Shown one piece after another: positions 14,242-42,805 of a stretch of DNA of 64,000 bases. This DNA is from an uncultured Spirochaetales bacterium (GTDB lineage Bacteria > Myxococcota_A > UBA9160 > UBA6930): NCBI GenBank assembly GCA_964615365.1, contig CAZTOU010000011.1:29671-93670 (forward strand). Direction: 5' to 3'. The notes beneath the pieces were generated by a model. The model saw only the letters and a program-made list of their open reading frames with translations, ran no database searches and had not been told where the DNA came from. The stretch's first letter is position 1; each line of letters opens with the position of its first letter. The position numbers and the translations under genes are program-made.

Positions 14242-14436
14242 CGGGAGGCCTCGACTTCCCCCAATGATACTCCCAGAAGGGCGGTTGTCCCAAGCATCGG
14301 TTCGAGCGGCCGGACGTCCGACGGGTGGTGCACAGCTCCTCGAGCCGGGTCAGGATCACCTCGTGCTCGAGGGCGCGCCAGGGATCCTCGCCCTCGCCCA
14401 GCAGGTGTGCCACCTGGTCGGGTGTGACCGCGCCGG

Positions 14437-15312
14437 TCAATGGCTTCTCGATGTCGCAGCACTTCCCATCAGCATGTACTGCCCCACCTCCGCGCCAGCG
14501 GACCGGCTGATGACCGGACACTTGACCCGGAACAGGAAGTAGATGTTTCCGGGTGCGTCGCTGAGCGTCTCGAAGTTCCCCTGGCCCTTGGCGATGATCA
14601 CTTCCGCGGCTTCGAAGAGGGTGCGGACTTCCGGGCGGACCTCGGCGAGGACCGTTCCCGGTGCGTCGTTTCCGGTGTCGAGGACGGGGACCAACCGATC
14701 GAGCCCCGCGAAGCGAGCATCTTCGAGAGTGGCATCGTTCAGAACCGGCTGGCCGCGGACTGCGAAGGTGATGTCGGCAGCGGAGTACCGTTTCAGCACC
14801 TCGACCAGCAGCCGGTCGAACACGATCTCTCCGGCATTGTCTCCGAGGTAGAGCACGGAGCGGGCCTGCGAGACGTCTGCCTTGAACGCCGCGTAGTCCA
14901 TCACCCCGAACGAGGCGCTTTCCGCGTCGCGCCACTCCCGGTCGAAGTCGAAGCCGCCCGCCATGGCCCCGAAGTCGATCACGTTGCCTGCGATCGAGAG
15001 CCGGACCGCCAGCTCGAGTGGATCCTCGGCCCGTTCCACCATGGCTCGGAGCCGGGGCAGGAGGGCGAGTGCCCGGGTGTTGTACTCGCGCTTCCTGCCC
15101 GCGTAGGGGTCCGGGTTCTCGGAGACCTCTCGAATCAGGCGGTGTGTCCTGCGCGCGATCTCCGGCGGAGAGAGGTCATGGGGGAGCTCCATCAGCATCC
15201 CCATGACCCCGTTCAAGATCTCCCGTTGCCGCGCCGGGTCCGTCGAGGCCACCCTGGCCGCTTCGAGAGCCTGCTTTAGCAGGCAGGGAAGACAATCGAG
15301 CTGTGTCCTCAC
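14437..15312 (-). CDS. DUF89/ARMT1-family damage-control phosphatase-like protein
   Basis: 291 aa with an N-terminal C.PC motif (LDCLPCLLKQ) and the metal-binding motifs LGDNAGEIVFD and KGQGNFETL. Confidence 0.8.
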   Translation of the reverse strand: MRTQLDCLPCLLKQALEAARVASTDPARQREILNGVMGMLMELPHDLSPPEIARRTHRLIREVSENPDPYAGRKREYNTRALALLPRLRAMVERAEDPLELAVRLSIAGNVIDFGAMAGGFDFDREWRDAESASFGVMDYAAFKADVSQARSVLYLGDNAGEIVFDRLLVEVLKRYSAADITFAVRGQPVLNDATLEDARFAGLDRLVPVLDTGNDAPGTVLAEVRPEVRTLFEAAEVIIAKGQGNFETLSDAPGNIYFLFRVKCPVISRSAGAEVGQYMLMGSAATSRSH

Positions 15313-15550
15313 GGATGCTGGATCCCCTGGTTCCTGGCGGATCCTCGCAAATTCTCGGTCAGATGCATTCCGTTTTCTCTATCCCTTGTTCGAATCACGC
15401 GAACCCGGTCGAGCCGGCGTCGTGACGACATCTCCTCGCCGGGGAATCGGCGGCTATCATGATCGGAACCTCTCCGCGGAGGATCCGGTCTCTTGTCGGA
15501 AGGGGAGGGCGACCGGAGGCGGGTCATCCCGATCTCGGAAGGGGCTCCCG

Positions 15551-17101
15551 ATGATGCAGGTACTGAGCGAGGAACAACTGGATCGCATCCACGATGCGTC
15601 GCTTCGGCTCCTGGAGAGCAACGGCGTGACGTTTCACGGGAGCTCCGAGGCCGTCCAGGTGCTAGGCGAGCACGGCTGCCGCGTCGATGGCTTCCGCGTG
15701 CGCTTTCCGAGGGCGATGGTCGAGGAGTCCCTCGGTCTCGTACCCGACCGCAACCGGCTCTACTTCGACTACGCGCCTCTGGCCGTGGCCGAGCCGATGA
15801 GCCTGACGAAGGGCGAGAGCCACGTCGGGCTGATCGGGAATGCCTTCTACGTCTACGACTTCGAGCGGGGATCGCACCGGGACTGCGTCGAGGCGGACGA
15901 GCCCGACAAGTCCCTGGTCCTCGATACCCTGGAGAACGTGGAGTTCGACTGCTGCAATCTCGTCTTCCATTCCGAGCGGGTGGGCAAGAGGACCCCGCCG
16001 GACTTCAGCGTCGTGGAGAACGCGACCAGTCTGCTTCGATGCCGGGTCCAGGACAGGGCTCGTGCGCTCGCGCTGACGGGTCGGGATCCGAACACGCTTC
16101 CGATGCGACTGCTCAGCCGGACCGGTCAGGAGTGGCTCCTCGAGGGGCTGAGCATCCTGGCGTTGCAGGGACGAGCGGATGGAGAAGCGCTGATCGAGAG
16201 GTGCTTCATTCCGTTCGTCTGGTGCAATCCCAAGAGCCCCCTCCAGTACTCCGCCGAGGAGACCGCGGGCATCATCCGGGTGGCGAGGAGCACCGCGGCG
16301 TCGCGTTGGGCGATGATCTCGCCGGAGGTCATGCTGGGTGCGACGGGTCCCGTTACCGTCGCCGGCGCGCTGGTGCAGCACAACGCGGAGGTGCTCGCCG
16401 GGGTCATCCTGGCGCAGCGGGTGCAGGCGGGCACCCCGGTCATCTACGGGTGCGTCAGCGCCCCCATGGACCTTCGCACGGCCGAGATCTCGCAGGGCAG
16501 CTTCGAGACCGCCCTGATCAACGCCGCCTCCGTCCAGCTGGCCGATCGCTACGGGTTGCCCTCCCGTATCGCTCCGGGCAACACCAGTGCCCGCCAGCCC
16601 GGCGTCCGGGCGGCGGTGGAGCTCACGCTGGGCCTGCACATGGGACTGGCTGCGGGAGGCAATCTCATCACCACCGGGCTGCTCGATTCCACCGTGATGG
16701 TCAGCTACGAGCACACCGTCCTGCTGGACGAGCTGGTCGGGCAGCTCAAGAGCGCCACGCAGGGCATCCGGACCGACGAGAGCGGAATGGCCCAGGACGT
16801 CCTCCGCGAGCACGGCAACCCCTCGCCCGACTTCCTCGGCGCCGATCATACGCTCGAGCACATGAAGCGGGACGTCTACTACTCGGACTACACCGGCCGG
16901 ACCAAGCGGTCCTACGAAGACTGGTACGAGAAGGCGCACGCCCGCGTTGGACAGGTGCTCGATCGTCATCCGAACGACGCGCGTCTGGAGCCCGTCATCG
17001 AGGAGAGACTGGCAGCCGTCGAAGCGCGCCTGCGGGAGGACAACGAGAGCTGGCGCCGCGCAGAGGGCGATTGGTGGCAGTTCTACATCCAGGACTTCTA
17101 G
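15551..17101 (+). CDS. MttB-superfamily methyltransferase, non-pyrrolysine type
   Basis: The start is taken at ATGATG 15551 (MMQVLSEEQLDRIHDASLRLLESNGV, a typical MttB N-terminus), giving 516 aa. There is no in-frame TAG. The rest of the 632-aa track ORF upstream is non-coding leader. Confidence 0.75.
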   Translation: MMQVLSEEQLDRIHDASLRLLESNGVTFHGSSEAVQVLGEHGCRVDGFRVRFPRAMVEESLGLVPDRNRLYFDYAPLAVAEPMSLTKGESHVGLIGNAFYVYDFERGSHRDCVEADEPDKSLVLDTLENVEFDCCNLVFHSERVGKRTPPDFSVVENATSLLRCRVQDRARALALTGRDPNTLPMRLLSRTGQEWLLEGLSILALQGRADGEALIERCFIPFVWCNPKSPLQYSAEETAGIIRVARSTAASRWAMISPEVMLGATGPVTVAGALVQHNAEVLAGVILAQRVQAGTPVIYGCVSAPMDLRTAEISQGSFETALINAASVQLADRYGLPSRIAPGNTSARQPGVRAAVELTLGLHMGLAAGGNLITTGLLDSTVMVSYEHTVLLDELVGQLKSATQGIRTDESGMAQDVLREHGNPSPDFLGADHTLEHMKRDVYYSDYTGRTKRSYEDWYEKAHARVGQVLDRHPNDARLEPVIEERLAAVEARLREDNESWRRAEGDWWQFYIQDF

Positions 17102-17107
17102 CCCGCG

Positions 17108-17524
17108 TCAGCCTGCGCTGCGCATCGCCAATCGGTAGCCCACCACCCCCAGCACCATCGCGCCGACGAAGATCGCGACTTCCGGTGATCCGCGGAAGAG
17201 ATTCGCGAGGGCCGGGCCCGGGCAGAGCCCCACCAATCCCCAGCCCGCTCCGAAGAGCACGGCGCCGCCCAGGAGGGGGGCGTCGATGTCGCGCCGCGTC
17301 GGGATCGCGAAGGCTTCGCCCAGCCACGAGCGCTCGCGGCGGCGGGCGATCTGATAGCCGCCGGCACTCACCAGCAGCGCGCCGCCCATCACGAAAGCGA
17401 GGGTCGGATCCCAGCGGCCCGCGATGTCGAGGAAGGCCAGCACCTTGGCGGGGTTCGTCATGCCCGAGATGGCGAGGCCGGCGCCGAAGACGATTCCGCA
17501 GAGAGCCGCAACCCCGAGCTTCAT
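17108..17524 (-). CDS. YeeE/YedE-family small membrane protein (sulfur-compound transport component, second half)
   Basis: 138-aa protein with four hydrophobic helices and the motifs GMTNPAKV and GWGLVGLCPGPA. Its ATG overlaps the upstream paralogue's stop (ATGA). Confidence 0.75.
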   Translation of the reverse strand: MKLGVAALCGIVFGAGLAISGMTNPAKVLAFLDIAGRWDPTLAFVMGGALLVSAGGYQIARRRERSWLGEAFAIPTRRDIDAPLLGGAVLFGAGWGLVGLCPGPALANLFRGSPEVAIFVGAMVLGVVGYRLAMRSAG

Positions 17525-17955
17525 CCGGATCCCCCCAGCAGATGGCGAACGACGAAGACCGTCGCGCCCGCGGTGGCCATGAAGGTCAGGGTGGCGACGA
17601 TGGAGCGCCTCGAGCCGCGACCCATCCCGCAGACGCCGTGCCCGCTCGTGCAGCCGTTGCCGAGCTGGGTCCCGATGCCGACCAGGAGACCGCCGGCGAT
17701 CAGCAGCAGCGGGTTCGAAGCCATGGCAAAGCCCGGGATATCGCCGGTGAGGGTTGCGGCCAGCCAGGCCCCGAGCGGCAGGCCAGCCAAGAAGGCGATT
17801 CGCCACGGCAGGTCCTCACCGCGGGCGAAGAAGCCGCGGCCGAGGATCCCGCTGATCCCCGCGATCTTGCCGCCTGCCAGCAGAAGGACGGCACTCGCGA
17901 TGCCGATCAAGGCTCCGCCGAAGAGCCCGGCACCCGGTGTGAACGCGGCTTCCAT
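17521..17955 (-). CDS. YeeE/YedE-family small membrane protein (first half, conserved Cys motif)
   Basis: 144 aa with GNGCTSGHGVCG, the hallmark of the YeeE/YedE sulfur transport family. Confidence 0.78.
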   Translation of the reverse strand: MEAAFTPGAGLFGGALIGIASAVLLLAGGKIAGISGILGRGFFARGEDLPWRIAFLAGLPLGAWLAATLTGDIPGFAMASNPLLLIAGGLLVGIGTQLGNGCTSGHGVCGMGRGSRRSIVATLTFMATAGATVFVVRHLLGGSG

Positions 17956-18821
17956 CAGTCCGAACTCGTCCTCCCCAACCTGTCGAGGGGGATCTTGAGA
18001 TAGGAGGTTCCGTTCTCTTCCGGCTCCGGCAGCTCGCCGGCGCGGATGTTGACCTGAATCGAGGGCAGGATCAGGACCGGCGCCGCCAGCTCGGCGTCCC
18101 TCTTCTCGCGGAAGGCGACGAATTCGTCGCGGCTGGTGCGCGCGGTGATCTGGACATTGCCGCGCTTGTGCTCGGCGACGGTGGTTTCGTAGACGACGGG
18201 CCGGCCTCCCGGCTGGTAGTCGTGACACATGAAGAGCCGCGTCTCGTCGGGCAGGGCATAGAGGCGCTGGATGGAGTCGTAGAGCTCGGTGGCCGAGCCG
18301 CCGGGGAAGTCGCAGCGCGCCGCTCCGTAGTCGGGCGGGAAGAGCGTGTCGCCCACGAAGACGGCGTCGCCGATCTTCCACGACATGTGCGCCGGCGTAT
18401 GGCCCGGGGTGTGGAGAGCTTCCACTTCCAGGCTGCCGAACGGCAGACGATCCCCCTCATCGATCAGAAGATCGAACTGGCTGCCGTCCACGGGAAAGTC
18501 GTCGGCGAGGTGGTAGAGGTCGCGGAAGACGCGCTGGATCTCCCCGATGCTCGCGCCGGTCACCGTCTGTGCACCGTAGCGCTCCTTGAAGAAGGGAAGT
18601 CCCGTCATGTGGTCCGCGTGGGCGTGGGTATCCACGACGTAGGGGATCTCCAGTCCCTGGCTTGCGATGTAGGACGCCACGGTCTCCGACGACTCCCAGG
18701 AGGTGCGGGCGTTCTTGGGGTCGTAGTCCCTGACCGGGTCGATCACGACACCCGTCCGGCCGTCGTCGACCACGTAGGTGAGCGTCGAGGTCGCCTCGTG
18801 GAAGAAGTGCCGAACCCTCAC
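17955..18821 (-). CDS. MBL-fold metallo-hydrolase, persulfide-dioxygenase-like
   Basis: The GTG at 18821 with the SD gagggga gives VRVRHFFHEATSTLTYVV... It has the metal motif DTHAHADH and a later HTPGHTP. About 288 aa, a length typical of ETHE1/Blh-like enzymes. Confidence 0.75.
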   Translation of the reverse strand: MRVRHFFHEATSTLTYVVDDGRTGVVIDPVRDYDPKNARTSWESSETVASYIASQGLEIPYVVDTHAHADHMTGLPFFKERYGAQTVTGASIGEIQRVFRDLYHLADDFPVDGSQFDLLIDEGDRLPFGSLEVEALHTPGHTPAHMSWKIGDAVFVGDTLFPPDYGAARCDFPGGSATELYDSIQRLYALPDETRLFMCHDYQPGGRPVVYETTVAEHKRGNVQITARTSRDEFVAFREKRDAELAAPVLILPSIQVNIRAGELPEPEENGTSYLKIPLDRLGRTSSD

Positions 18822-18940
18822 AGCTCGTCCCCTCGCGTGCGTCCGGAGGCAGATGATCTGGTCACCGCTTCGGCACGCCACTCTACTCGAGGAGGTCCGC
18901 GTCTGTCGAATCGCTGGCAGTACTCCTGTGCACCGGCCCC

Positions 18941-19003
18941 AGACGAAAGCGCGGGCCCCGAAGGACCCGCGCCGTGCAAAACCCTGGCGGGTCTGCGTCT
19001 TTG
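18941..19003 (-). repeat. Double-hairpin terminator-like module, copy B (paralogue of the module downstream of tRNA-Pro)
   Basis: 28 nt (aaagcgcgggccccgaaggacccgcgc) are identical to 25717-25743. A second hairpin follows (minus strand GCAGACCC-GCCA-GGGUUUUGC) that keeps its pairing through changed bases relative to copy A. Confidence 0.6.
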
Positions 19004-19046
19004 TGCTTCCCGAGACAGGGCTGACACATCGTTCCGGACACATGGT

Positions 19047-19202
19047 TTACACAACCGGCATTTGGGGAGCGCCCGGATGCCGTGGAGAACGTGTAGACCG
19101 ATGGACGAACGCCTCGGCCTGCTGCACCTCGGCGACCAGCTCGCGAGGTGTCTGCGGTGCGCCGCCGAGCGTGTAGAAGCCTAGCTCGTTCATCCGTTCC
19201 AT
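19047..19202 (-). pseudogene. N-terminal relic of a luciferase-like (LLM) oxidoreductase
   Basis: A 51-codon ORF with a good SD (gaggag). The first ~32 aa (MNELGFYTLGGAPQTPRELVAEVQQAEA) match the usual LLM/F420-type N-terminus; the sequence then degenerates into Arg/Pro-rich nonsense and stops. Confidence 0.35.
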
Positions 19203-19385
19203 CGGTTTCTCCTCGAGCGATGCGGGGGGCCGTTCGCCGCTTTCATGGTACTGCAGCGAACCGTACTCAGGCGCTCAGAAATGGAAAGGACGTCGAGATC
19301 TTCGATTGCGACCGCTGGGCAACGGGGTACGCCCCTGGATGTGCACCTGATAGACTCGTCCGGGCGAAGACGGAGGTTCGAAGCG

Positions 19386-20585
19386 ATGTCCGACTCCCTC
19401 GCGAAGTGCTTCTCCCCAGCGACGCTCGCCGGTCTCGAGCTCCGGAACCGGGTCATCAAGGCCGCGACGTTCGAGGGCATGTGCCCGGACGGCGTACCGA
19501 GCGAGCGCCTGTTCGAGCATCATCGCGAGGTGGCGGAGGGCGGCGTGGCTATGACGACCCTGGCCTATTGCGCCGTGGAGGCGGATGGCCGGGTCAAGCG
19601 CGAGATGATGTACATGCACGAAGGCATCCGGCCTCAGCTCGGACGCCTGGCACGCGAGGTCCACGAAGCGGGCGCGAAGCTCTCCGGTCAGATGGGGCAC
19701 TGCGGCAATTTCTCGCAGAACGCCGATTTCCGGGGTAAGCGCCCCCTGGGTCCGTCACGCATGCTCAATCTGGGCGGTCTCCCCGTCGGTCTCCCCTTCG
19801 CTGGAGCAATGAAGCACTCGGACATCGATCGCCTGGTGGATCTGTTCCGCAAGGCCGCGGCCTTCATGAAATCGGTGGGCTTCGACGCGCTGGAGATCCA
19901 CTTCGGGCACGGCTACGGCTTGAGCCAGTTCATCAGCCCCAAGACCAACAAGCGAAGTGACGAGTATGGCGGCAGTCTGGTCAACCGAATGCGCCTGCCG
20001 CTGCGGGTGCTCGAAGCCGTGCGCGAAGCGGTGGGAGACGACTTCCCGATTCTCGGCAAGATGGGGCTGACCGACGGCGTGAAGGGCGGCTTGAAGGAAG
20101 ACGAAGCCATCGACGTCGCCGCACTTCTCGACGAAGGGGGGATCGATGCCCTCATCCCGAGCGGGGGCACGAGTAGTATGAACCCGATGCTGCTGTTTCG
20201 CGGCGACAGCTTGCAGAACGGCCTGATCGAGCAGGAGAAGAACCCGCTGATGCGCCTTGCCCTCAGGATGTACGGCTCCTCCTTCTTCAAGGAATATCCG
20301 TACGAAGAGCTCTACTTCCTGGAGGGTGCGAAGCGAGTTCGCGATCGCATCAAACGCGCCAAGGTCGTCTACGTCGGCGGCGTGAGCACCCTGGAGAGCA
20401 TCGAGACCGCGATGCAGGAGTTCGAATTCATCCAGATCGGCCGCGCCCTCTGGAAGGACCCTGCCTTCGTGAACCACGCAAAGACCGACCCCGGCTACGT
20501 CAATGGCTGCGACCACTGCAATCGCTGCGCCACCCTGATCGCCCACCCGGACGGCGTGCGCTGCGTGACGAACGACGGCGTCTGA
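19386..20585 (+). CDS. Old-Yellow-Enzyme-family NADH:flavin oxidoreductase
   Basis: ATG at 19386 (MSDSLAKCFSPATLAGLELRNRVIKAAT). Motifs HCG, FDALEIHFGHGYGLSQFISP.TN.R.DEYGGS and R.RL..EV. 399 aa. Confidence 0.88.
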   Translation: MSDSLAKCFSPATLAGLELRNRVIKAATFEGMCPDGVPSERLFEHHREVAEGGVAMTTLAYCAVEADGRVKREMMYMHEGIRPQLGRLAREVHEAGAKLSGQMGHCGNFSQNADFRGKRPLGPSRMLNLGGLPVGLPFAGAMKHSDIDRLVDLFRKAAAFMKSVGFDALEIHFGHGYGLSQFISPKTNKRSDEYGGSLVNRMRLPLRVLEAVREAVGDDFPILGKMGLTDGVKGGLKEDEAIDVAALLDEGGIDALIPSGGTSSMNPMLLFRGDSLQNGLIEQEKNPLMRLALRMYGSSFFKEYPYEELYFLEGAKRVRDRIKRAKVVYVGGVSTLESIETAMQEFEFIQIGRALWKDPAFVNHAKTDPGYVNGCDHCNRCATLIAHPDGVRCVTNDGV

Positions 20586-20666
20586 TTCAACTCCGGCGGG
20601 CGGATTCCGGGCCGCTGCGGATCGCGCATACTTGAGATCCCATCCAACACTCGGAAGGAACCCACA

Positions 20667-21209
20667 GTGAATGACAGCTCCTATACCCCGCCCAAGCTCT
20701 GGACCTGGGACGCCGAAAGCGGCGGGAGCTTCGCCAAGATCAACCGGCCCATCGCCGGTGCCACCCACGAGAAGGAGCTTCCGGTCGGCGAGCATCCCCT
20801 GCAGCTCTATTCGCTGGCGACGCCCAACGGCGTGAAGGTGACGGTGATGCTGGAGGAGCTGCTGGCCCTGGGCAAGGACGCAGAGTACGACGCGTATCTC
20901 ATCAACATCGGCGAGGGCGACCAGTTCGGGAGGGGCTTCGTCGCCGCGAACCCCAACTCCAAGATCCCGGCCATGGTCGACCACAGCACGTCGCCGCCCA
21001 CACGGATCTTCGAGTCGGGCGCCATCCTGGTCTACCTGGCCGAGAAGTTCGGCGTCTTCCTCGACGCGAAGTCCTACACGAACGTCGTGCGCTGGGCGAC
21101 CGAGATCCAGGAGCGCCCTGCTCTCCAGCGGGGCGAGCGCGTCAACAAGGCCTGGGGCCCTGAGGAGCTGCGCCTTTCCGAGCGCCACTCCGCCAGCGAT
21201 TTCGACTGA
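20667..21209 (+). CDS. Nu-class (YghU-like) glutathione S-transferase with internal in-frame deletion (probably non-functional)
   Basis: The N-terminal 133 aa and the last ~45 aa align, from my memory of E. coli YghU, with KVWTWD..GG.FA.INRP..G.THEK.LPVG.HPLQLYS..TPNG.KV..MLEELLALG and SY..V.RWA.E..ERPA..RG..VN......L.ERH.ASDF. The roughly 100 aa of helical domain in between is absent (180 aa here versus roughly 280-290 for the family). Confidence 0.7.
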   Translation: MNDSSYTPPKLWTWDAESGGSFAKINRPIAGATHEKELPVGEHPLQLYSLATPNGVKVTVMLEELLALGKDAEYDAYLINIGEGDQFGRGFVAANPNSKIPAMVDHSTSPPTRIFESGAILVYLAEKFGVFLDAKSYTNVVRWATEIQERPALQRGERVNKAWGPEELRLSERHSASDFD

Positions 21210-21273
21210 GGCGTCCTATTCGCCACGGATCAAAGGCGGCTTTGATTTCAAACGGCAGAAGAAAGAGACACCC

Positions 21274-22398
21274 ATGCAGAACAAAGAACTTCAAGTGAGG
21301 GCGCTCTTCGAGAAGATGCTCGAGGACACCGAGGAATATGCCCGGACATACGAACACTATGTCGCGGACATGAAGAATTACAGCGCCAAGGTTCAATGGA
21401 AACTCGGTTCCGTCAGCGGATATCAAGTCTTCAGGGGACCGGAGTATTCGTTCAGGATCGATGCAGAGATCGAAGATCCGGATGTCTTGATCGAATGCGA
21501 TGACCTCAGAGATGCCAAGCAGTTCTTCAGGGATGGTTTCGAAGACATGCGCGACCTTGCGAATGCTGATTTCGAGATTACGGCACCGAAATCGGCAAGT
21601 CCTGCTCTCGCCGATTCATGGAGGCTGGCGAGTGCTCTCGTAGCGAAGATGCCGGCTTTCAGACCCATCATGGAGAGAACAGAAGGAGCCCAGCACTCAA
21701 CGGCCGTGGCAATTCCAATCAACCAATCCCTGGGTGAATTCAACAACGAAATACTGCCTGTTGCAGTCGTTGAGCACTTTATCAACAAGGCAAGCCATAT
21801 CTTCCTCTACGATCTATGCCCGTGTCGAGTAATGCGGAAGTGCGAGCACTTCGATCACTACAGTTTCGGGTGTATGTGCCTGGGTAGGGGTGTTCTGAGA
21901 ATGAAGCCCAATGACGGCCTTATCGTACAGGGGCATATCGGCACGAAAGAAGAGGCATTGCAGCGCGCGCGAAAGGCCGTTGAGGTCGGGCTGATCCCAG
22001 GCTTCGGCAGGCTCAGAAGCGATGCCATCAACCGTATCGGTGGGCCTATCCCGGATACAGGGGACCTCTTCAATCTGTGCTACTGCTGCCCGTGTTGCTG
22101 CGTCTTGAAGGGCGTGAAGTATGCACCGAGCTACTTGCGATCGATCTTCGGGAGATTGGAAGGGCTGACTGTTGCAGCAGACGAGGAGCTCTGTACCGAC
22201 TGTGGAGATTGCGCTGAAGCCTGCATTTTCGGTGGGCTGGAGATGGTGGATGGCAAGCTGCAGCGGGACGACGAGAAATGCTTTGGCTGCGGCAGATGTG
22301 AGGCAGTGTGTCCAACTGGAGCGGTCAGCATTGCGCTGGAAGAAGGCAGCGTGGAAAGAATGATCGCCCGAATTGAGGCCCAGGTTGATGTTACTTAG
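21274..22398 (+). CDS. Cys-rich Fe-S protein: SCP2-like N-terminus, two unusual Cys clusters and a C-terminal 2x[4Fe-4S] ferredoxin domain (foreign, AT-richer gene)
   Basis: 374 aa. The C-terminus has CTDCGDCAEAC...CFGCGRCEAVCP (a dicluster ferredoxin). Upstream clusters are LCPCRVMRKCEHFDHYSFGCMCLG and NLCYCCPCCCV. Codons frequently end in A/T, unlike all neighbouring genes. Confidence 0.7.
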   Translation: MQNKELQVRALFEKMLEDTEEYARTYEHYVADMKNYSAKVQWKLGSVSGYQVFRGPEYSFRIDAEIEDPDVLIECDDLRDAKQFFRDGFEDMRDLANADFEITAPKSASPALADSWRLASALVAKMPAFRPIMERTEGAQHSTAVAIPINQSLGEFNNEILPVAVVEHFINKASHIFLYDLCPCRVMRKCEHFDHYSFGCMCLGRGVLRMKPNDGLIVQGHIGTKEEALQRARKAVEVGLIPGFGRLRSDAINRIGGPIPDTGDLFNLCYCCPCCCVLKGVKYAPSYLRSIFGRLEGLTVAADEELCTDCGDCAEACIFGGLEMVDGKLQRDDEKCFGCGRCEAVCPTGAVSIALEEGSVERMIARIEAQVDVT

Positions 22399-22433
22399 AC
22401 AGGCTCGAAAACCCGTTCACCCTAGTGGACGGT

Positions 22434-22519
22434 GGCTGATAGGGCAAACAGGCTGGGTTCTGGATCGACGTCCGAGTAGGGACGTTTTGTCAAACCCCTC
22501 CGGGGGTCCCCTCGGCGGG
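22434..22519 (-). mobile_element. Solo IS91/ISCR-family oriIS-like terminal sequence, copy 1
   Basis: 86 bp, about 95% identical to 24487-24570. The minus strand ends ...CCCAGCCTGTTTGCCCTATCAGCC, which resembles the conserved oriIS core of IS91-family elements as I recall it. Confidence 0.55.
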
Positions 22520-22530
22520 GCACGCCGTAA

Positions 22531-23352
22531 TTCGCGCTTCACGAGCCTCCCGACTACAAGTCGGCACGGCACGATCCCGACATCAACCGCTGCTTCTACA
22601 CCATCGTCGGGTACGAGAATGCGGAGCAGGTGTCCGAGTACATTCTCCAGGCGACGGGGGGGCGACCCCCGGAGCGGCCCGCCGCTGGCACCTGGGTGAA
22701 CACGCTCTGGGATCCCAGTCAGGCCCCGCCCGGCAAGCACTCCATGAACGGCTGGTACTTCTTCCCCCGGGCATCCGATCTGACTCCGGCCGAGTGGGAG
22801 GAGCTGAAGCAGACCTACAACGGCCGCTTCCTGGCGCTTTGGGAGAAGTACGCGCCCAACATGACCCGCGACAACGTGATCGCCGACGCGCTCTACACGT
22901 CCTTCGAAATCGAGCAGGAGATGGGCATGCGGGAGGGGGGCTTCGGCCACGGGCGGCCCAAGACGGGCACGCTGGGTCTGGAGGGGGTGGGAGACCGATC
23001 CATAGGCTACACGCGGACCGGCGTCGAAGGCCTCTATCTGTGCGAGGGAGAGCAGCGTTTCTTCGTCGTCCTGCTGAACGACGGAAAGTGCACGGAATAC
23101 TACGAGGTGGACGAGGCGCCGCCCCGCAAGGAGTTCGACTTCATCTTCGAGATCCCCGCCGCCATCTTCGAGGAGGTGGCCGCCGGAATCGTCGATCCGG
23201 TGGAGGTCGGTCTCAAGGGCACCATCAAGATCACCGGTGACATGCGCATCCTGATCCGGCACGCGGACCTCGTCAACGTCGTGCAGGAGGTCTACGCAAG
23301 AGAGGTGGAGACCACCTGGCCGAAGGCTCAGCCGCCGTACCCAAATCCGTAG
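22531..23352 (+). pseudogene. 3' fragment of a CrtI-like FAD-dependent oxidoreductase fused to a C-terminal SCP2 domain
   Basis: The frame opens at 22531, immediately after the oriIS-like repeat (stop at 22528-22530). It contains only the C-terminal oxidoreductase part (..GGFGHG.P......Y.T.VEGLYLCE) followed by an SCP2-like tail (FIFEIPAAIFEEVAAG..DPVEVGLKGTIKITGDM). The N-terminal FAD-binding GxGxxG half is absent. Confidence 0.6.
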
Positions 23353-23384
23353 CCGGGTCGGAGGGGCAGGGCGCCTATCTGCGG

Positions 23385-24212
23385 ATGACGGCTCGTAAAC
23401 GGCGCTATCCTCCTGTGATGGCTCGAGTACGTAGAGAGCGCTCGCGGCGCCCCTTCGTCCGCCGTGTACGACACGTCGTGAGACCGTTCATCTCGCACCC
23501 GCTATCCAGATTGGCGGCGCTCCTGGTTCCGCTCTTGTATGTGGCCTACATGCGTCTGGTGTGGGTGACGAGTCGTGTGGATCCAGGGAACTTTCCGGAC
23601 CTGCATCGGATCGCCGCCGAGCACGGTGGCGCAATAGGGCTGCTCTGGCACGAGGAGGTGATGCTCGGCCCCTTCACGTACGCCCGTCTCGGATTTCGGC
23701 CCCACACACTCGCGAGCCTCGGGGACGCGGGGGACGTCGCCACACGCACCGTCAAGATGCTCGGCTACGTCGTGTTCAGGGGCGGCTCCACCCGCAGATC
23801 CTCGCGGCGGCGGGAACACATCCTGAAGGACATGATCGAGCACATGAGCGCTCGCGATGACGTCATCTATGGACTCACCGTGGACGGCTCCAAGGGCCCA
23901 CCGTATCGCATGAAGACAGGGGGGATCGTGATCGCACGGGACTGTGGAAAGCCGATCATCCTGGCCCGCGTCTGGATCAAGCGATGCATGCGGTTGAACA
24001 CCTGGGACCGGACCGCGATCCCCCTGCCGTTCAACCGGATTTCCTGCTACCTGCGTGGACCCTACTTCGTCCCCGAGGATGCGCACTCCGAGGATGGGCT
24101 GGAGGCGTTTCGCGACCGACTCGAGGACGACCTGATCGATTTGGCGGTTCACAGCTACGAGGAGATGGGACATCCCAGGCCGGAGAACCTCGTCAAGCGA
24201 AAAGACAATTGA
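23385..24212 (+). CDS. DUF374-domain (lysophospholipid acyltransferase-like) protein
   Basis: 275 aa with an N-terminal basic/TM segment, then WHEE....P, RGGS.R....L..M and DG.KGP....K.GG...A patterns typical of DUF374. Confidence 0.6.
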   Translation: MTARKRRYPPVMARVRRERSRRPFVRRVRHVVRPFISHPLSRLAALLVPLLYVAYMRLVWVTSRVDPGNFPDLHRIAAEHGGAIGLLWHEEVMLGPFTYARLGFRPHTLASLGDAGDVATRTVKMLGYVVFRGGSTRRSSRRREHILKDMIEHMSARDDVIYGLTVDGSKGPPYRMKTGGIVIARDCGKPIILARVWIKRCMRLNTWDRTAIPLPFNRISCYLRGPYFVPEDAHSEDGLEAFRDRLEDDLIDLAVHSYEEMGHPRPENLVKRKDN

Positions 24213-24486
24213 TGACATCCTGCTGACTGCGATTCACCCATCCGGAGAAGATCGACATCCGCCGCACCCGAATCCGCAGCCGGGTCGGAGGGGCAGGGCA
24301 CCCCGGAAGTCGCGAGCCGCCTCGGCACCTCCTCCGAGCCAGGAGCCACGAGAGCAGCGGCATCAGCAGGGCCAGCTCGACGCCGAGGCCGCAGCCTCCG
24401 GCCTCGCCTGCACCCCACGACGCGATGCAGCCGGGGTCGACCTCGGCGATCGGTACGCCGCCGTTGACGGACGCACCGCCATCGAA

Positions 24487-24570
24487 GGCTGATAGGGCAA
24501 ACAGGCTGGGTTCTGGATCGACGTCCGAGTAGGGACGCTATGTCAAACCCCTCGGGGTCCCCTCGGCGGG
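24487..24570 (-). mobile_element. IS91/ISCR-family oriIS-like terminal sequence, copy 2 (attached to transposase relic)
   Basis: 84 bp matching copy 1. It lies about 170 bp downstream (on the minus strand) of the transposase C-terminal fragment, which is where oriIS sits in IS91-family elements. Confidence 0.6.
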
Positions 24571-24740
24571 ACGATTTCATCGTGCGGGGGCGCCACGGGC
24601 CCCTTGCATCGGCTGGGAAGGGGATCATCGGGACCTGTTGCTCGACTCGCGCCGAGTCGCGGGCGCAGAGGAGCCGTCTGGGACGTGGTGGGGTCGAAAG
24701 GGGCGGGCCATGGACGCCGCCTCTACTCATGCGGCGGGTG

Positions 24741-25365
24741 CTACGGCTTGTCGTAGGCCGGGGTCTGATCGAATTGCCAGGTGGCTTCTTCGTGGGCGTG
24801 ATCCGGACCGTCGTGTGCCGAAGCCGGCTCGAGCGGAGGGGCGCGGGCGGGGAGTCCTAGGCATTTGAGAATCTTGCGGGCGACCGCGGGGTCTTCGATG
24901 GCCGCCATGAGTCGGAGGGTGGATACGCAGCGGGGGCAACGAAGCGCGTCAATTTCGAACACGCGCTGGAGCAACAACGCCCAGCGGTTTCGTCTAGATG
25001 TCAATCGTGCCGGTCCATCGCAGGATGGTTCGCTCTCCGGCGACCCGGACTCCCCCTGGGCTGACTGCTCCGGTTCGGCCTCGCCGTCCCTCAATGCGGC
25101 GGAGCGATTCGCGCCAGCTGCAGCTGCCTCCATCGGGCCCGGTTGTTCTGCCGAGACCCGCGCGGCGGCGAAGCTCTGCGAAGAGCGCTCGAACGAAGGC
25201 ACGGAGCTCCTGCTCGACAAAGCAGGGAGCGGGCTGATCTCTGCCTCGTGCGCGAGTGAGGAAGGGCTCGAGGTTCTCTCGGACGACCTCGTGGAGCAGG
25301 GTGTGCTCGGGCTGGTGGCGTTGATACTCGACGGCGCAGGATCTTCGCGGGACCGAGTGCTCCAC
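24741..25365 (-). mobile_element. Degenerate IS91-family (Y2, rolling-circle) transposase gene: N-terminal Zn-binding-domain fragment joined to a C-terminal fragment, catalytic core deleted
   Basis: Frame A (24994-25365) reads HQPEHTLLHEVVRENLEPFL....CFVEQELRAF, resembling the start of the IS91 Zn-binding domain. Frame B (24741 to about 25010) reads RWALLLQRVFEIDALRCPRC..TLRLMAAIEDPAVARKILKCLGLPARAPP, a typical IS91-family C-terminus. The ~250-aa Y2 core between them is missing and the two pieces are in different frames. Confidence 0.7.
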
Positions 25366-25710
25366 GGGAATCGGAGCAACTTCGGTGCCAATTGAGAACG
25401 GGTCGTCGGGCGCCGCTCACGGGTCCACTGCTGCCCGCCAGGTCGTGCCGCGCAGCGAAGGCCTTGTCGAATCACGTGGAGCCGAACCGAGCCGTGAACT
25501 TCGGGGCACGACGCCGCTGTAACTCCGGGTACTCAGCAATCCCCTGATAGGGGTTCGAGAGGCTGCTCTGCCCACGCGGACAGTTATCATATCCGCGCTA
25601 TCGCATTGGAATCTCTGTGGCGCGGACCAGGTGCGGTTCAGGTGGACCCTGGTTCGGGCGGTTTGAATCCACCCTGGGCTCCTGACCAGACGCCCGGGCC
25701 GGCGAACCCT

Positions 25711-25743
25711 CAGACAAAAGCGCGGGCCCCGAAGGACCCGCGC
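25711..25743 (-). terminator. Rho-independent terminator of tRNA-Pro (part of double-hairpin module, copy A, 25711-25778)
   Basis: The minus strand reads GCGCGGGUCC-UUCG-GGGCCCGCGC followed by UUUUGUCUG, about 40 nt after the tRNA 3' end. It is preceded by a second hairpin GCAAGCCC-GGCA-GGGGUUUGC (25752-25772). Confidence 0.75.
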
Positions 25744-25783
25744 TATACTTCGCAAACCCCTGCCGGGCTTGCGTCTTTTCGGA

Positions 25784-25860
<77 letters not shown>

Positions 25861-40897: not shown

Positions 40898-41000
40898 GAC
40901 CGCAGGGCACCCCCGACCACATCCGGACTCCGCTACCGCTGCTTCCTTCCGGACCTGACGGATTTCACGGGGTACCCAGATCGGCCGGGACCCTGCGATC
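40898..41000 (-). ncRNA. ffs: Signal recognition particle RNA (small, 4.5S-type)
   Basis: The minus strand contains the universally conserved helix-8 region GUCAGGUCCGGAAGGAAGCAGC. The termini CGCAGGG...CCCUGCG pair to close the long hairpin. It sits immediately upstream of dnaX, a common synteny. The ends are approximate. Confidence 0.8.
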
Positions 41001-41109
41001 ATGGATCGCCGCGACCGTTCCGAATCTAACCTGTCCGCCTGCTCTTCGCCCGGCCACCCGCCCGATCCCCAGGCGGGGGCTAGAAATGCGGGCTAGGTTG
41101 ACCACCCGC

Positions 41110-41201
41110 GGAGAGGTGCCGGAGCCCGGTTGAACGGGCCTGACTCGAAATCAGGTGAATGGCTTGCCATTCCGTGGGTTCGAATCCCACCCTCTCCGCC
41201 A
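41110..41201 (+). tRNA. tRNA-Ser (anticodon CGA), long variable arm, CCA encoded
   Basis: GGAGAGGTGCCGGAGCCCGGTTGAACGGGCCTGACTCGAAATCAGGTGAATGGCTTGCCATTCCGTGGGTTCGAATCCCACCCTCTCCGCCA, with anticodon loop CTCGAAA. Confidence 0.95.
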
Positions 41202-41315
41202 CTCCGGGCAGGAACGGCGACAGTCGATCCGGGGAGACGCCCCGTGCCCGCCGCGATTCGCCACGCGCGCTTCCGTTCTTTGCGGGGCGTTCCAGGCAGG
41301 ATAGCCTTGCGGACC

Positions 41316-41759
41316 ATGGACACGAGGGGTTCCGCCGCCTGGAATCGATCGCGTCGCTGGCTGCGCGCGGCCCTCTACGTCGGCGCCACCCTCATCGGCC
41401 TGCACCTGTTCACCTTCGAGAACACCTTTCCGGTCTACTACAACGGGAACTCGGGCGGCCAGGCCGGTGAGGTCATCTGGAACAGCAGCAACTTCGCGCA
41501 GCCGCTGCTGCTGATCACCGCCACCGAAATCGCGGTCTTCGCCACCCGGACGCCGGAAACCAAGCAGGCGATCACCGTAGTCGGCCGCTGGGTGTCCGCG
41601 TTCTTCGCCCTCGTGGTGCTGATCGCGTTCATGCGACTCGCCGAGCGCCGCTACGGCCTGGGTGCCGCCCTGTGCGTTGCTGCGCTGCTATTGAGCTACG
41701 AGACGCTGGTCATCAACGCGCACTTCTTCAAGGGCCTCGTCAGAAGAATCTGTGGGTGA
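41316..41759 (+). CDS. Hypothetical integral membrane protein (147 aa)
   Basis: The ATG at 41316 lies after tRNA-Ser. The protein has 3-4 hydrophobic helices. It may be the upstream piece of a disrupted larger membrane protein together with 41858-42805. Confidence 0.4.
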   Translation: MDTRGSAAWNRSRRWLRAALYVGATLIGLHLFTFENTFPVYYNGNSGGQAGEVIWNSSNFAQPLLLITATEIAVFATRTPETKQAITVVGRWVSAFFALVVLIAFMRLAERRYGLGAALCVAALLLSYETLVINAHFFKGLVRRICG

Positions 41760-41857
41760 ATTCGGGCTCCGGGAGCCGGCCAAGTGAGTGATACAGGGCG
41801 ATTTCGGTCGTTCTGCTCTTCGGGCCCTGGGACGGCGAGGCGTCGCGAGGCCGACGC

Positions 41858-42805
41858 TTGCGCCTGCTGCTCGGAGGTTTCGCCGCGGTGTTCGCCGTCG
41901 CGAACTTCCGGATGTGGCTCGCGCTACCCGACTTCTTCAGGCGCATCACCTTCATGACGCACATGTCCATCACGGGGACCCGGGGCGAGTACGTGATCCA
42001 GGAGCGTACGTTCAACGCCTACGGCACGATCTGGACGGACCTCCCGCACCTGGCAGTCATCACCGCGGGAACACTGCTGGTGGCCATGTGCGTCTTCGCC
42101 GGTCCGCGCCGCAGCGTGCTGCTGTGGTTCATGGCGCTCTACGCGCTGGTCTACCCCGGGCTCATCCAGATGGCCAAGTTCGGGGGTGGACCGCGGCACC
42201 AGCTTCCGGCACTGCTACCGGTGCTGTTCCTTGCCGTAGCGGGGGCTTTCGAGATCGCGCGGGGGCTGCGTACGCCACGCTGGGTCCCGGTCGCTGTGGC
42301 GGTCGCGCTCGTCGCAGCGGTGCTCCCGGGCTCGTCCGCGCGTACGGAAGCCACGCTGCGCGGAATCCGAATGGACAGCCGCAAGCTCCTCTACGATTTC
42401 GTGAGCAGACATGTGCCGCCCGACGCCCGGATCGCACAGGACTGGTACGCCTGCCTGCCCGACCCGGAGGCGAAGCACCACGAGGACGACCCTCTCTCGC
42501 TCCCCCACGACGTGATCACCGGGGGATCGGTGGCAGATCTGGGAACTCTGGATGAGCTCCGCGCCGAGGGAATCGAATACGTCGCCGTGGCCGCAAAGCA
42601 ATGGCTGAAGGTGTTTCGCACGAATGTGCGTCCGAGGCCCGAGGCGGAGGGCAAGCACGCACGCCGCAGGGCTTTCTACGAGCGGCTGTTCGCGGAAGAA
42701 GAACTGGTCTGGGACAGCGCGAGCGCCGGCTCCCCGCCCGGCGGATTCTTCGGCCTGGAGACCCGTCTCTATCGAATCACCACACCGGCTTCACCTCGGC
42801 CATGA
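41858..42805 (+). CDS. Hypothetical membrane protein with C-terminal soluble domain (315 aa)
   Basis: TTG start. About 5 TM helices followed by a ~150-aa soluble tail. The overall layout is reminiscent of the C-terminal part of GT-C/ArnT-like glycosyltransferases, but I see no diagnostic motif. Confidence 0.4.
   Translation: MRLLLGGFAAVFAVANFRMWLALPDFFRRITFMTHMSITGTRGEYVIQERTFNAYGTIWTDLPHLAVITAGTLLVAMCVFAGPRRSVLLWFMALYALVYPGLIQMAKFGGGPRHQLPALLPVLFLAVAGAFEIARGLRTPRWVPVAVAVALVAAVLPGSSARTEATLRGIRMDSRKLLYDFVSRHVPPDARIAQDWYACLPDPEAKHHEDDPLSLPHDVITGGSVADLGTLDELRAEGIEYVAVAAKQWLKVFRTNVRPRPEAEGKHARRRAFYERLFAEEELVWDSASAGSPPGGFFGLETRLYRITTPASPRP

Follow-up and report, generated by a model that had tools for sequence, protein, structure and literature searches.

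Why should a short, structured, non-coding module occur in two direct copies 6.8 kb apart, one of them directly behind a tRNA-Pro gene, with decayed genes in between? The question is raised by a 64,000-nucleotide stretch of contig CAZTOU010000011.1 from an uncultured Spirochaetales bacterium, which was analyzed at its full length and is called the window here. An earlier note on this DNA saw in the two copies either the footprint of an integrated element that has lost its integrase or members of a dispersed family of terminators resembling repetitive extragenic palindromic (REP) sequences. Comparison with related loci shows that the module is the 3' trailer of the tRNA-Pro(CGG) gene. The explanation favored here, which as a whole we hold to be somewhat better than an even bet, is that the copy next to the tRNA gene (copy B) is native, that the distant one (copy A) is an orphan, and that the duplication was a by-product of recombination in a mosaic shaped by IS91/ISCR-type elements.

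The tRNA-Pro(CGG) gene lies on the minus strand at 25784-25860 (found by ARAGORN; 64 bits with the Rfam tRNA model), behind a promoter-like site that a promoter scan places at 25908-25880. It is highly conserved, with 76-77 of its 77 nt identical in seven relatives. Because the gene is on the minus strand, the module next to it constitutes its 3' trailer, and it is this strand that folds. Copy B (25705-25781, minus strand) starts about 5 nt past the CCA of the tRNA. Copy A (18934-19005, minus strand) duplicates this trailer without the tRNA and carries a 5-nt deletion in the linker relative to copy B. As the earlier note had recognized, these are direct copies of a double-hairpin module; each is about 70 nt long, and there is no third one in the 64 kb. 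Their longest exact run measures 27 nt (18946-18972 and 25717-25743, AAAGCGCGGGCCCCGAAGGACCCGCGC), one fewer than had been counted. A search with a 26-nt core and up to three mismatches returns exactly two sites in the window, copies A and B, and none in 100 shuffled sequences. Blastn aligns 18937-19002 with 25708-25778 at 81.7% identity over 71 columns.

Both copies fold better on the minus strand than on the plus strand, with a minimum free energy of -44.2 kcal/mol for copy B (z -5.1) and -40.1 kcal/mol for copy A (z -3.0). Hairpin 1 spans approximately 25772-25752 in copy B and 18996-18976 in copy A, and hairpin 2 follows on the same minus strand at 25744-25719 and 18973-18948, respectively. 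The second hairpin has an 11-bp stem with one G.U pair, closes with a UUCG loop and is followed by a U-tract. In copy B, this GC-rich hairpin and the tail UUUUGUCU form a predicted intrinsic terminator 40 nt past the tRNA, and a simple terminator scan calls it at 25744-25719. The tail of copy A, UUUCGUCU, is a weaker U-tract, and this copy falls below the threshold of the scan. Read on the minus strand, the UUCG hairpin and its U-tract would terminate the tRNA transcript. On the plus strand, a T-run comes after the weaker hairpin 1, which in this direction could halt transcription that approaches the tRNA gene.

The module was sought in one genome per Genome Taxonomy Database (GTDB) species with a degenerate core pattern, GCGCGGGYCCCGAAGGRCCCGCGC, and a metagenome collection was scanned as well; neither collection included the source contigs. 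The genome scan yields 15 matches, one in each of 15 GTDB genomes, and the metagenome scan yields nine exact cores, four of which are tRNA-Pro trailers. Three related metagenome-assembled genomes (MAGs) contain exactly one exact core each, always in the tRNA-Pro trailer. At seven core loci, tRNA-Pro(CGG) is immediately upstream of the match, and across MMPL, TP_0789-like, Rpe and RsmB these loci are 82-90% identical to the window. In L009/L035, L016, L018, L023/L027, L026, L031 and L034 (locus handles of the relatives), the module starts 5-9 nt past the CCA of tRNA-Pro(CGG).

The two hairpins differ in conservation. A 24-nt core that includes the G.U pair and the UUCG loop is invariant across the trailers of all relatives. 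Hairpin 1 is variable yet 92% paired across eight homologues, which bears out the earlier observation that this hairpin keeps its pairing through base changes. One of its pairs has changed on both sides, and pairing is otherwise retained mainly through one-sided A-U/G.U changes. A covariance model built from eight module sequences (covariance model R1, 77 positions) scores copy B at 94.8 bits and copy A at 82.2 bits over all 77 positions, and gives one full match per relative locus. With filters off, the model reaches at most 14 bits at any other site in the 64 kb, apart from a 20.9-bit plus-strand match that overlaps copy B, and neither the rest of the window nor about 340 kb of other loci yields a further copy of the module.

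No Rfam family was found for the module at the gathering score or at E<=10 (the best is Atu_C9, with 19 bits against a gathering score of 40), and only tRNAs and the signal recognition particle (SRP) RNA pass the gathering score in the window. Viral contigs contain no match to the core. Since the module is single-copy and behind tRNA-Pro in relatives, it is the 3' trailer and predicted terminator of this tRNA in the lineage rather than a dispersed repeat, and the idea of a REP-like family is not sustained. The lineage in which this trailer is conserved is one of uncultured 'delta proteobacterium'-type MAGs.

Hairpin 2 by itself is also present elsewhere, and the core matches other than the trailers are bare hairpins from unrelated phyla. 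The exact 24-mer GCGCGGGTCCTTCGGGGCCCGCGC, including the G.U position, occurs as a single lone hairpin in each of L008, L014, L015, L017, L019, L020, L022 and L025, whose hosts are Solirubrobacterales, Streptomyces, Acidimicrobiales, Shinella, Devosia and Ideonella. These lone hairpins look like convergent GC-rich UUCG terminators. Covariance model R1 gives such core-only hairpins of unrelated genomes 29-42 bits.

What lies beyond the module distinguishes the native copy from the orphan. On the side of copy B away from the tRNA is a conserved non-coding stretch, D (25526-25704, minus strand; defined by blastn, alignment and nhmmer), of which about 60-80 nt are shared with most relatives and all with L035 and L026. 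In blastn alignments, homology past copy B ends at 25526 in L009, L026 and L035 and at 25641-25669 in L034, L016, L023/L027 and L031, and on the same side it ends at 25719 in L018. D contains a 6-bp hairpin, GGGTGG-ATTCAAA-CCGCCC, that pairs on the minus strand only, and no Rfam family was found for it. Within the window, an nhmmer profile of D matches only 25717-25638 and nothing near copy A. Nor is there a tRNA remnant upstream of copy A, where 486 of 500 shuffled sequences score as well in local alignment. Copy A is the module alone, with flanks homologous to neither tRNA-Pro nor D. Because D adjoins the inner side of copy B in homology with relatives, copy B is the native one. Insertion by recombination within the module would have put D beyond copy A; as D adjoins copy B, the arrangement argues against insertion at the module.

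The module copies lie in a region that differs greatly between relatives. Blastn synteny delimits a variable interval (14273-25525) that extends from a conserved BFN_dom gene to tRNA-Pro with its module and D. The conserved flanks consist of fn3, TPR, HAMP-cyclase, GreA, Rce1-like and BFN_dom genes on one side and of tRNA-Pro, MMPL and onward on the other. The interval carries different cargo in every relative examined. In L018, it is about 2.1 kb with an epimerase and a glycosyltransferase-like start; in L031, it is 7.3 kb with a reductase, a Mo-oxidoreductase, a TetR regulator, a large membrane protein and a metallophosphoesterase; and in L035, it is about 5.5 kb. Relative to these three, the replaced block includes ARMT1, MttB, yeeE and MBL. 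L037, a 90% relative, shares ARMT1 and MttB, is without DUF6691-Sulf_transp-MBL and has more than 10 kb of other genes instead. Blastn homology between the window and L037 stops at 17099. The MttB and DUF6691 genes converge at this point, with 6 nt between their stop codons (17101-17108), so that the boundary of the MBL-yeeE block is without spare non-coding DNA.

The operon that this block contributes (17108-18821, minus strand; Pfam) encodes a persulfide-dioxygenase-like MBL protein, Sulf_transp and DUF6691, has a native-like GC content of 0.683 and follows copy A directly on the downstream side. Between copy A and the MBL start codon is a sigma-70-like promoter match (TCGACA-18-TAGAGT; 18880-18909, minus strand). 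With a promoter in this position, copy A would insulate the MBL-Sulf_transp-DUF6691 operon from upstream transcription. Genes outside the two copies have homologues of matching length (288 aa for MBL and mostly 759-826 aa for MMPL), in keeping with the earlier view that they are intact; MBL-yeeE is, however, itself accessory in comparison with the relatives. The earlier note had also raised the question whether MBL-yeeE and tRNA-Pro are adjacent where the segment between the copies is absent; none of the relatives examined through homologues of MBL, MMPL and MttB has this arrangement.

The locus L034, which belongs to a 90% relative with other DNA in this interval, has a partial tRNA at 769-820 on the minus strand (positions 10-63 of the Rfam tRNA model, 23.9 bits). 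It is located about 330 nt past tRNA-Pro and about 250 nt past the trailer, and by eye it is the 3' half of tRNA-Thr(CGU). This remnant has the appearance of a typical integrative-element scar in the same hot spot. In the window, no integrase domain is found in the open reading frames (ORFs) of 14.4-25.5 kb with Pfam or NCBIfam, nor in the Pfam annotation of the gene calls. Judged by these comparisons, the interval adjacent to tRNA-Pro(CGG) turns over rapidly between relatives in this uncultured marine lineage.

Within the interval, the earlier note had reported IS91 ends and a transposase relic; the relic is confirmed, and the ends correspond to end-like repeats. The relic, of a HUH (Y2) transposase of the IS91/ISCR family (24744-25420, minus strand), is made up of an N-terminal piece at about 25420-25156 and a C-terminal piece at 25070-24744, with the middle deleted. 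Its C-terminus matches the NCBIfam model of ISCR clade Ia (profile positions 441-485 of 509, E 4.7e-7) and, by tblastn, annotated IS91/ISPps1 transposases. The N-terminal piece was recognized by eye and has no hidden Markov model match. The 5' (terIS) side of the relic faces D and copy B. An 86-nt end-like repeat with a subterminal palindrome, repeat R1, is present in only two copies in the window, 96% identical and both on the minus strand. Copy 1 of this repeat (22434-22520) is a solo IS91-type oriIS-like end that abuts a truncated CrtO-like oxidoreductase gene, whereas copy 2 (24487-24570) is the presumed oriIS end of the relic and lies about 175 nt past its stop codon. In the IS91 family, oriIS is found downstream of tnpA (PMC13181058), so that the distance from the relic stop codon and the palindrome place repeat R1 where this family has oriIS. 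The target tetranucleotides expected beside such an end (GTTC/CTTG) are not clear-cut here. Rolling-circle transposition in the family runs past terIS in 1-14% of events, mobilizing adjacent DNA (PMC13181058). Among the fetched loci, repeat R1 occurs only in those from same-species contigs, and a search for an intact IS91 relative in plasmids gave nothing useful. The distal motif of D, CTCGAACCCCTATCAGGGG, resembles the end of repeat R1 (GAACCC...CCCTATCAGCC).

The remaining DNA between the module copies is compositionally distinct. The GC content of 19006-25525 is 0.629, whereas the MBL block has 0.683, the conserved flanks have 0.684-0.695 and the window as a whole has 68%. On the plus strand, a gene for a 399-aa Old Yellow Enzyme (OYE)/FMN oxidoreductase (19386-20585; Pfam PF00724, NCBIfam) matches only the OYE barrel part of 640-aa FadH/BaiCD-type models. 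It is followed by a 180-aa ORF of a YghU-type glutathione S-transferase (20667-21209) with an internal deletion of about 100 aa; NCBIfam PRK11752 is matched in two stretches with the middle absent, the best covering profile positions 1-133 of 287, and Pfam recognizes GST_N only. Next is a 374-aa gene with a 2x[4Fe-4S] ferredoxin domain (21274-22398; Pfam Fer4 families) and a GC content of 0.54. The C-terminal half of a CrtO/CrtI-like FAD oxidoreductase (22531-23352; NCBIfam CrtO, profile positions 340-483 of 563) is fused to a weak SCP2 domain, and its N-terminal half is absent. The last plus-strand ORF carries a DUF374 domain (23385-24212; Pfam) and is located between the copies of repeat R2, a 47-nt direct repeat of 89% identity (23329-23375 and 24256-24302) with only two copies in the window. 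With its lower GC content, deleted YghU gene, half CrtO-like gene and the gene stub described below, the bracketed DNA fits its earlier characterization as accessory or decayed, and by composition it is foreign.

This arrangement is fixed in the population from which the window derives. All contigs with exact matches to the FMN oxidoreductase (15), MBL (2) or MMPL (11) proteins share it, and they come from several samples. No deletion allele lacking the segment is seen among these contigs. The window matches marine metagenome contigs of one population, such as JGI Ga0120401_1001108 and the ENA SUTE22-1 scaffolds.

The DNA closest to the orphan module includes a chimeric 51-aa ORF (19050-19202, minus strand), which was compared by phmmer with 1.84 billion representative proteins, the matches being annotated with Pfam. 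Residues 1-32 form an LLM-type N-terminus. They share 70-88% identity with the N-termini of a group of proteins, among which P0369 weakly matches Bac_luciferase (E 6.7e-5); this upholds the earlier identification of an LLM stub. Residues 27-51 (EAFVHRSTRSPRHPGAPQMPVV*; 19125-19050, minus strand) constitute a different sequence, X, located 44 nt from copy A with its interior pointing toward that copy. Two ORFs on other metagenome contigs, P0379 and P0380, have C-terminal ends that match its residues at 76-84% identity; the sequence common to these two ORFs amounts to about 105 nt-equivalents and runs to one and the same stop codon. P0379 begins as an acyl-CoA dehydrogenase, and P0380 begins with a weak IS110-type transposase N-terminus. 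Sequence X resembles the terminal part of a repeat or mobile sequence. It is absent from all fetched relative loci and has no useful plasmid match, and a PDB search with the 51-aa stub gave no match. A Tn3-type inverted repeat and an IS110 origin of X were considered by eye; the sole support is a Pfam IS110 match to P0380 at E 0.086, and neither is claimed. Three same-species contigs from other samples (L006, L005 and L007) start at about 19002, 19061 and 19086, as if assemblies fork there.

In the explanation favored here, an IS91/ISCR-type rolling-circle element would first have assembled and later eroded a compositionally foreign mosaic of 6.5 kb (19006-25525), with copy A at its inner edge. 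Two candidate routes may have produced the orphan trailer. It may have been co-mobilized by one-ended rolling-circle transposition, a process documented for the IS91 family (PMC13181058), and then retained through homologous rescue. Another possibility is a homology-facilitated illegitimate join of two versions of the island. Outside the core, copy A agrees with copy B at 24 of 30 positions plus the 5-nt gap and with the orthologues of relatives at 24-26 of 30, where the relatives have 84-90% DNA identity to the window; copy B agrees with its closest relative, L034, at 31 of 35. These few sites hint that copy A is old or xenologous rather than a fresh in situ duplicate, and they are too few to tell whether copy B is a hybrid or which lineage was the source of copy A.

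Several observations count against this reconstruction. Rolling-circle transposition followed by rescue predicts that resident D would be found beyond copy A, where it is absent, and an extra deletion is needed to account for this. The 27-nt run shared by the copies is invariant in all relatives and is hence uninformative on the crossover site. On either side, the break point of copy A is only a few nucleotides from the module end, a precision that also fits a self-contained mobile or RNA-derived unit, and the module could be part of X, given the 44 nt between them. In addition, the U-tract of copy A is poor, terminator function is a prediction for both copies, and the module copy count in the source species covers about 73 kb only.

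The precise ends of copy A invite the proposal that a small, terminator-carrying element of the miniature inverted-repeat transposable element (MITE) or REP type, mobile or dispersed, is represented by the module, with X perhaps included, and that the sites at tRNA-Pro and MBL are both insertions. Copy A is exactly the module with non-homologous DNA on either side, each of three contigs joins X to a different upstream gene, and the three short same-species contigs begin at about this place (19002-19086). We nevertheless consider such an element unlikely, because seven relatives all have the module at the same place behind tRNA-Pro, followed by conserved D, each related MAG has one exact core, and no extra copy is found in the window or in the roughly 340 kb of other loci. 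The metagenome collection has only nine exact cores, four of them tRNA-Pro trailers, and X is beside neither copy B nor the module of any relative. A little less probable again is site-specific recombination of a circular integrative element at the module behind tRNA-Pro, which left the copies as attL and attR before the integrase was lost. Direct repeats do bracket foreign, decayed DNA beside a tRNA gene, the interval varies between relatives, and the partial tRNA in L034 shows that integrative elements have visited the neighborhood. The invariant core is moreover an imperfect 10-4-10 palindrome that may be reminiscent of recombinase core sites. This explanation is strained by the position of D, which is inside copy B, whereas integration would have put it past copy A. 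No tRNA sequence is present in the repeats, Pfam and NCBIfam reveal no integrase in the interval, and homology to either side of the core takes in the entire structured module, unlike the arms of hybrid att sites. The boundary of variable DNA also differs between relatives (25526, 25641-25669 and 25719), and three related MAGs lack a second core copy. Of the footprint of an integrated element proposed in the earlier note, the accessory interval beside tRNA-Pro remains, whereas attL and attR at the module do not, in view of these points and of a variable region larger than the segment between the copies.

The invariance of the 24-nt hairpin leaves a slim chance, which we rate slightly below that of an integrative element, that it is more than a terminator. 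It might be a target or recombination site of a mobile element (X, or an IS110/bridge-RNA-type or IS91-type element) that nucleates turnover of the island, or it might belong to a regulatory RNA of the 3' external transcribed spacer (3'ETS) type, with a second copy before the sulfur-detoxification MBL-yeeE operon. Far less credible is an RNA-mediated duplication, in which reverse transcription of the processed 3' trailer of tRNA-Pro, a 3'ETS-type RNA that extends from the RNase cut to the terminator, gave a DNA copy that became inserted upstream of MBL. In copy A, homology starts 5-6 nt past the position of the CCA and stops about 8-12 nt past the hairpin, which is roughly the extent expected of a trailer RNA, but it continues a few nucleotides past the expected termination point, and neither a reverse transcriptase in the interval nor a poly-A tract or target duplication is seen. 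To our knowledge, there is no bacterial precedent for insertion of a reverse-transcribed trailer. Independent convergence of two unrelated GC-rich UUCG terminators can be given practically no weight. It would draw on the recurrence of the same 24-mer with its G.U pair, once each, in eight unrelated genomes or contigs such as those of Streptomyces, Shinella and Ideonella. Those convergent hairpins are without hairpin 1, the A-run and the tail; copy A, by contrast, is homologous to covariance model R1 over its full length, and convergence is thereby refuted.

Duplication of the trailer within an IS91/ISCR-shaped mosaic, the explanation preferred here, can be compared to several known systems. 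Like integrase-type islands linked to tRNA genes, the locus combines foreign, decaying cargo beside a tRNA with short direct repeats and a hot spot that varies between relatives. It departs from them because the repeat is a trailer without the tRNA 3' end, there is no integrase, D is on the wrong side and the boundary is not fixed. In complex class 1 integrons, ISCR1 and its cargo are bracketed by a duplicated 3' conserved segment (3'-CS). The order in the window (module and D, terIS side, transposase, oriIS, cargo, module) resembles that arrangement, with the terIS side of the transposase toward one duplicated copy, cargo beyond oriIS and a second copy closing the array. The resemblance is one of topology only: here only a relic of the transposase is left, the duplication covers about 70 nt and includes a 27-nt exact run, D is not duplicated, and no circle or intact element was found. 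REP sequences and bacterial interspersed mosaic elements (BIMEs) are similarly short, GC-rich, structured intergenic modules with terminator-like hairpins and more than one copy. The module differs from these in being single-copy and syntenic behind tRNA-Pro in relatives, with two copies here and no array or family detected. Structured tRNA trailers can also be RNAs in their own right, as exemplified by 3'ETS-leuZ of E. coli. The module is likewise a structured trailer that ends in an operon terminator and is conserved beyond what a terminator needs, but unlike these RNAs it is known from sequence alone and matches no Rfam family.

Elsewhere in the window, a small bacterial SRP RNA (40898-40997, minus strand) lies beside a tRNA-Ser(CGA) gene (41110-41201, plus strand). 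Pfam gives no match for the two ORFs that come after this tRNA, one overlapping it (41097-41759) and one at 41792-42805.

As genome archaeology, the finding is modest and varies known themes rather than revealing a new kind of system. It illustrates that direct repeats beside a tRNA gene need not be the footprint of integration. Here, the repeat is the tRNA's own predicted terminator, and comparative synteny excludes an insertion at the repeat, given where D lies. The IS91/ISCR family is mostly known from antibiotic-resistance contexts. The present case documents a fast-turnover interval with the likely imprint of this family behind tRNA-Pro(CGG) in an uncultured marine lineage. If the invariant hairpin should prove to be a targeting site or part of a trailer-derived RNA, it would provide a handle on how such a hot spot is maintained.

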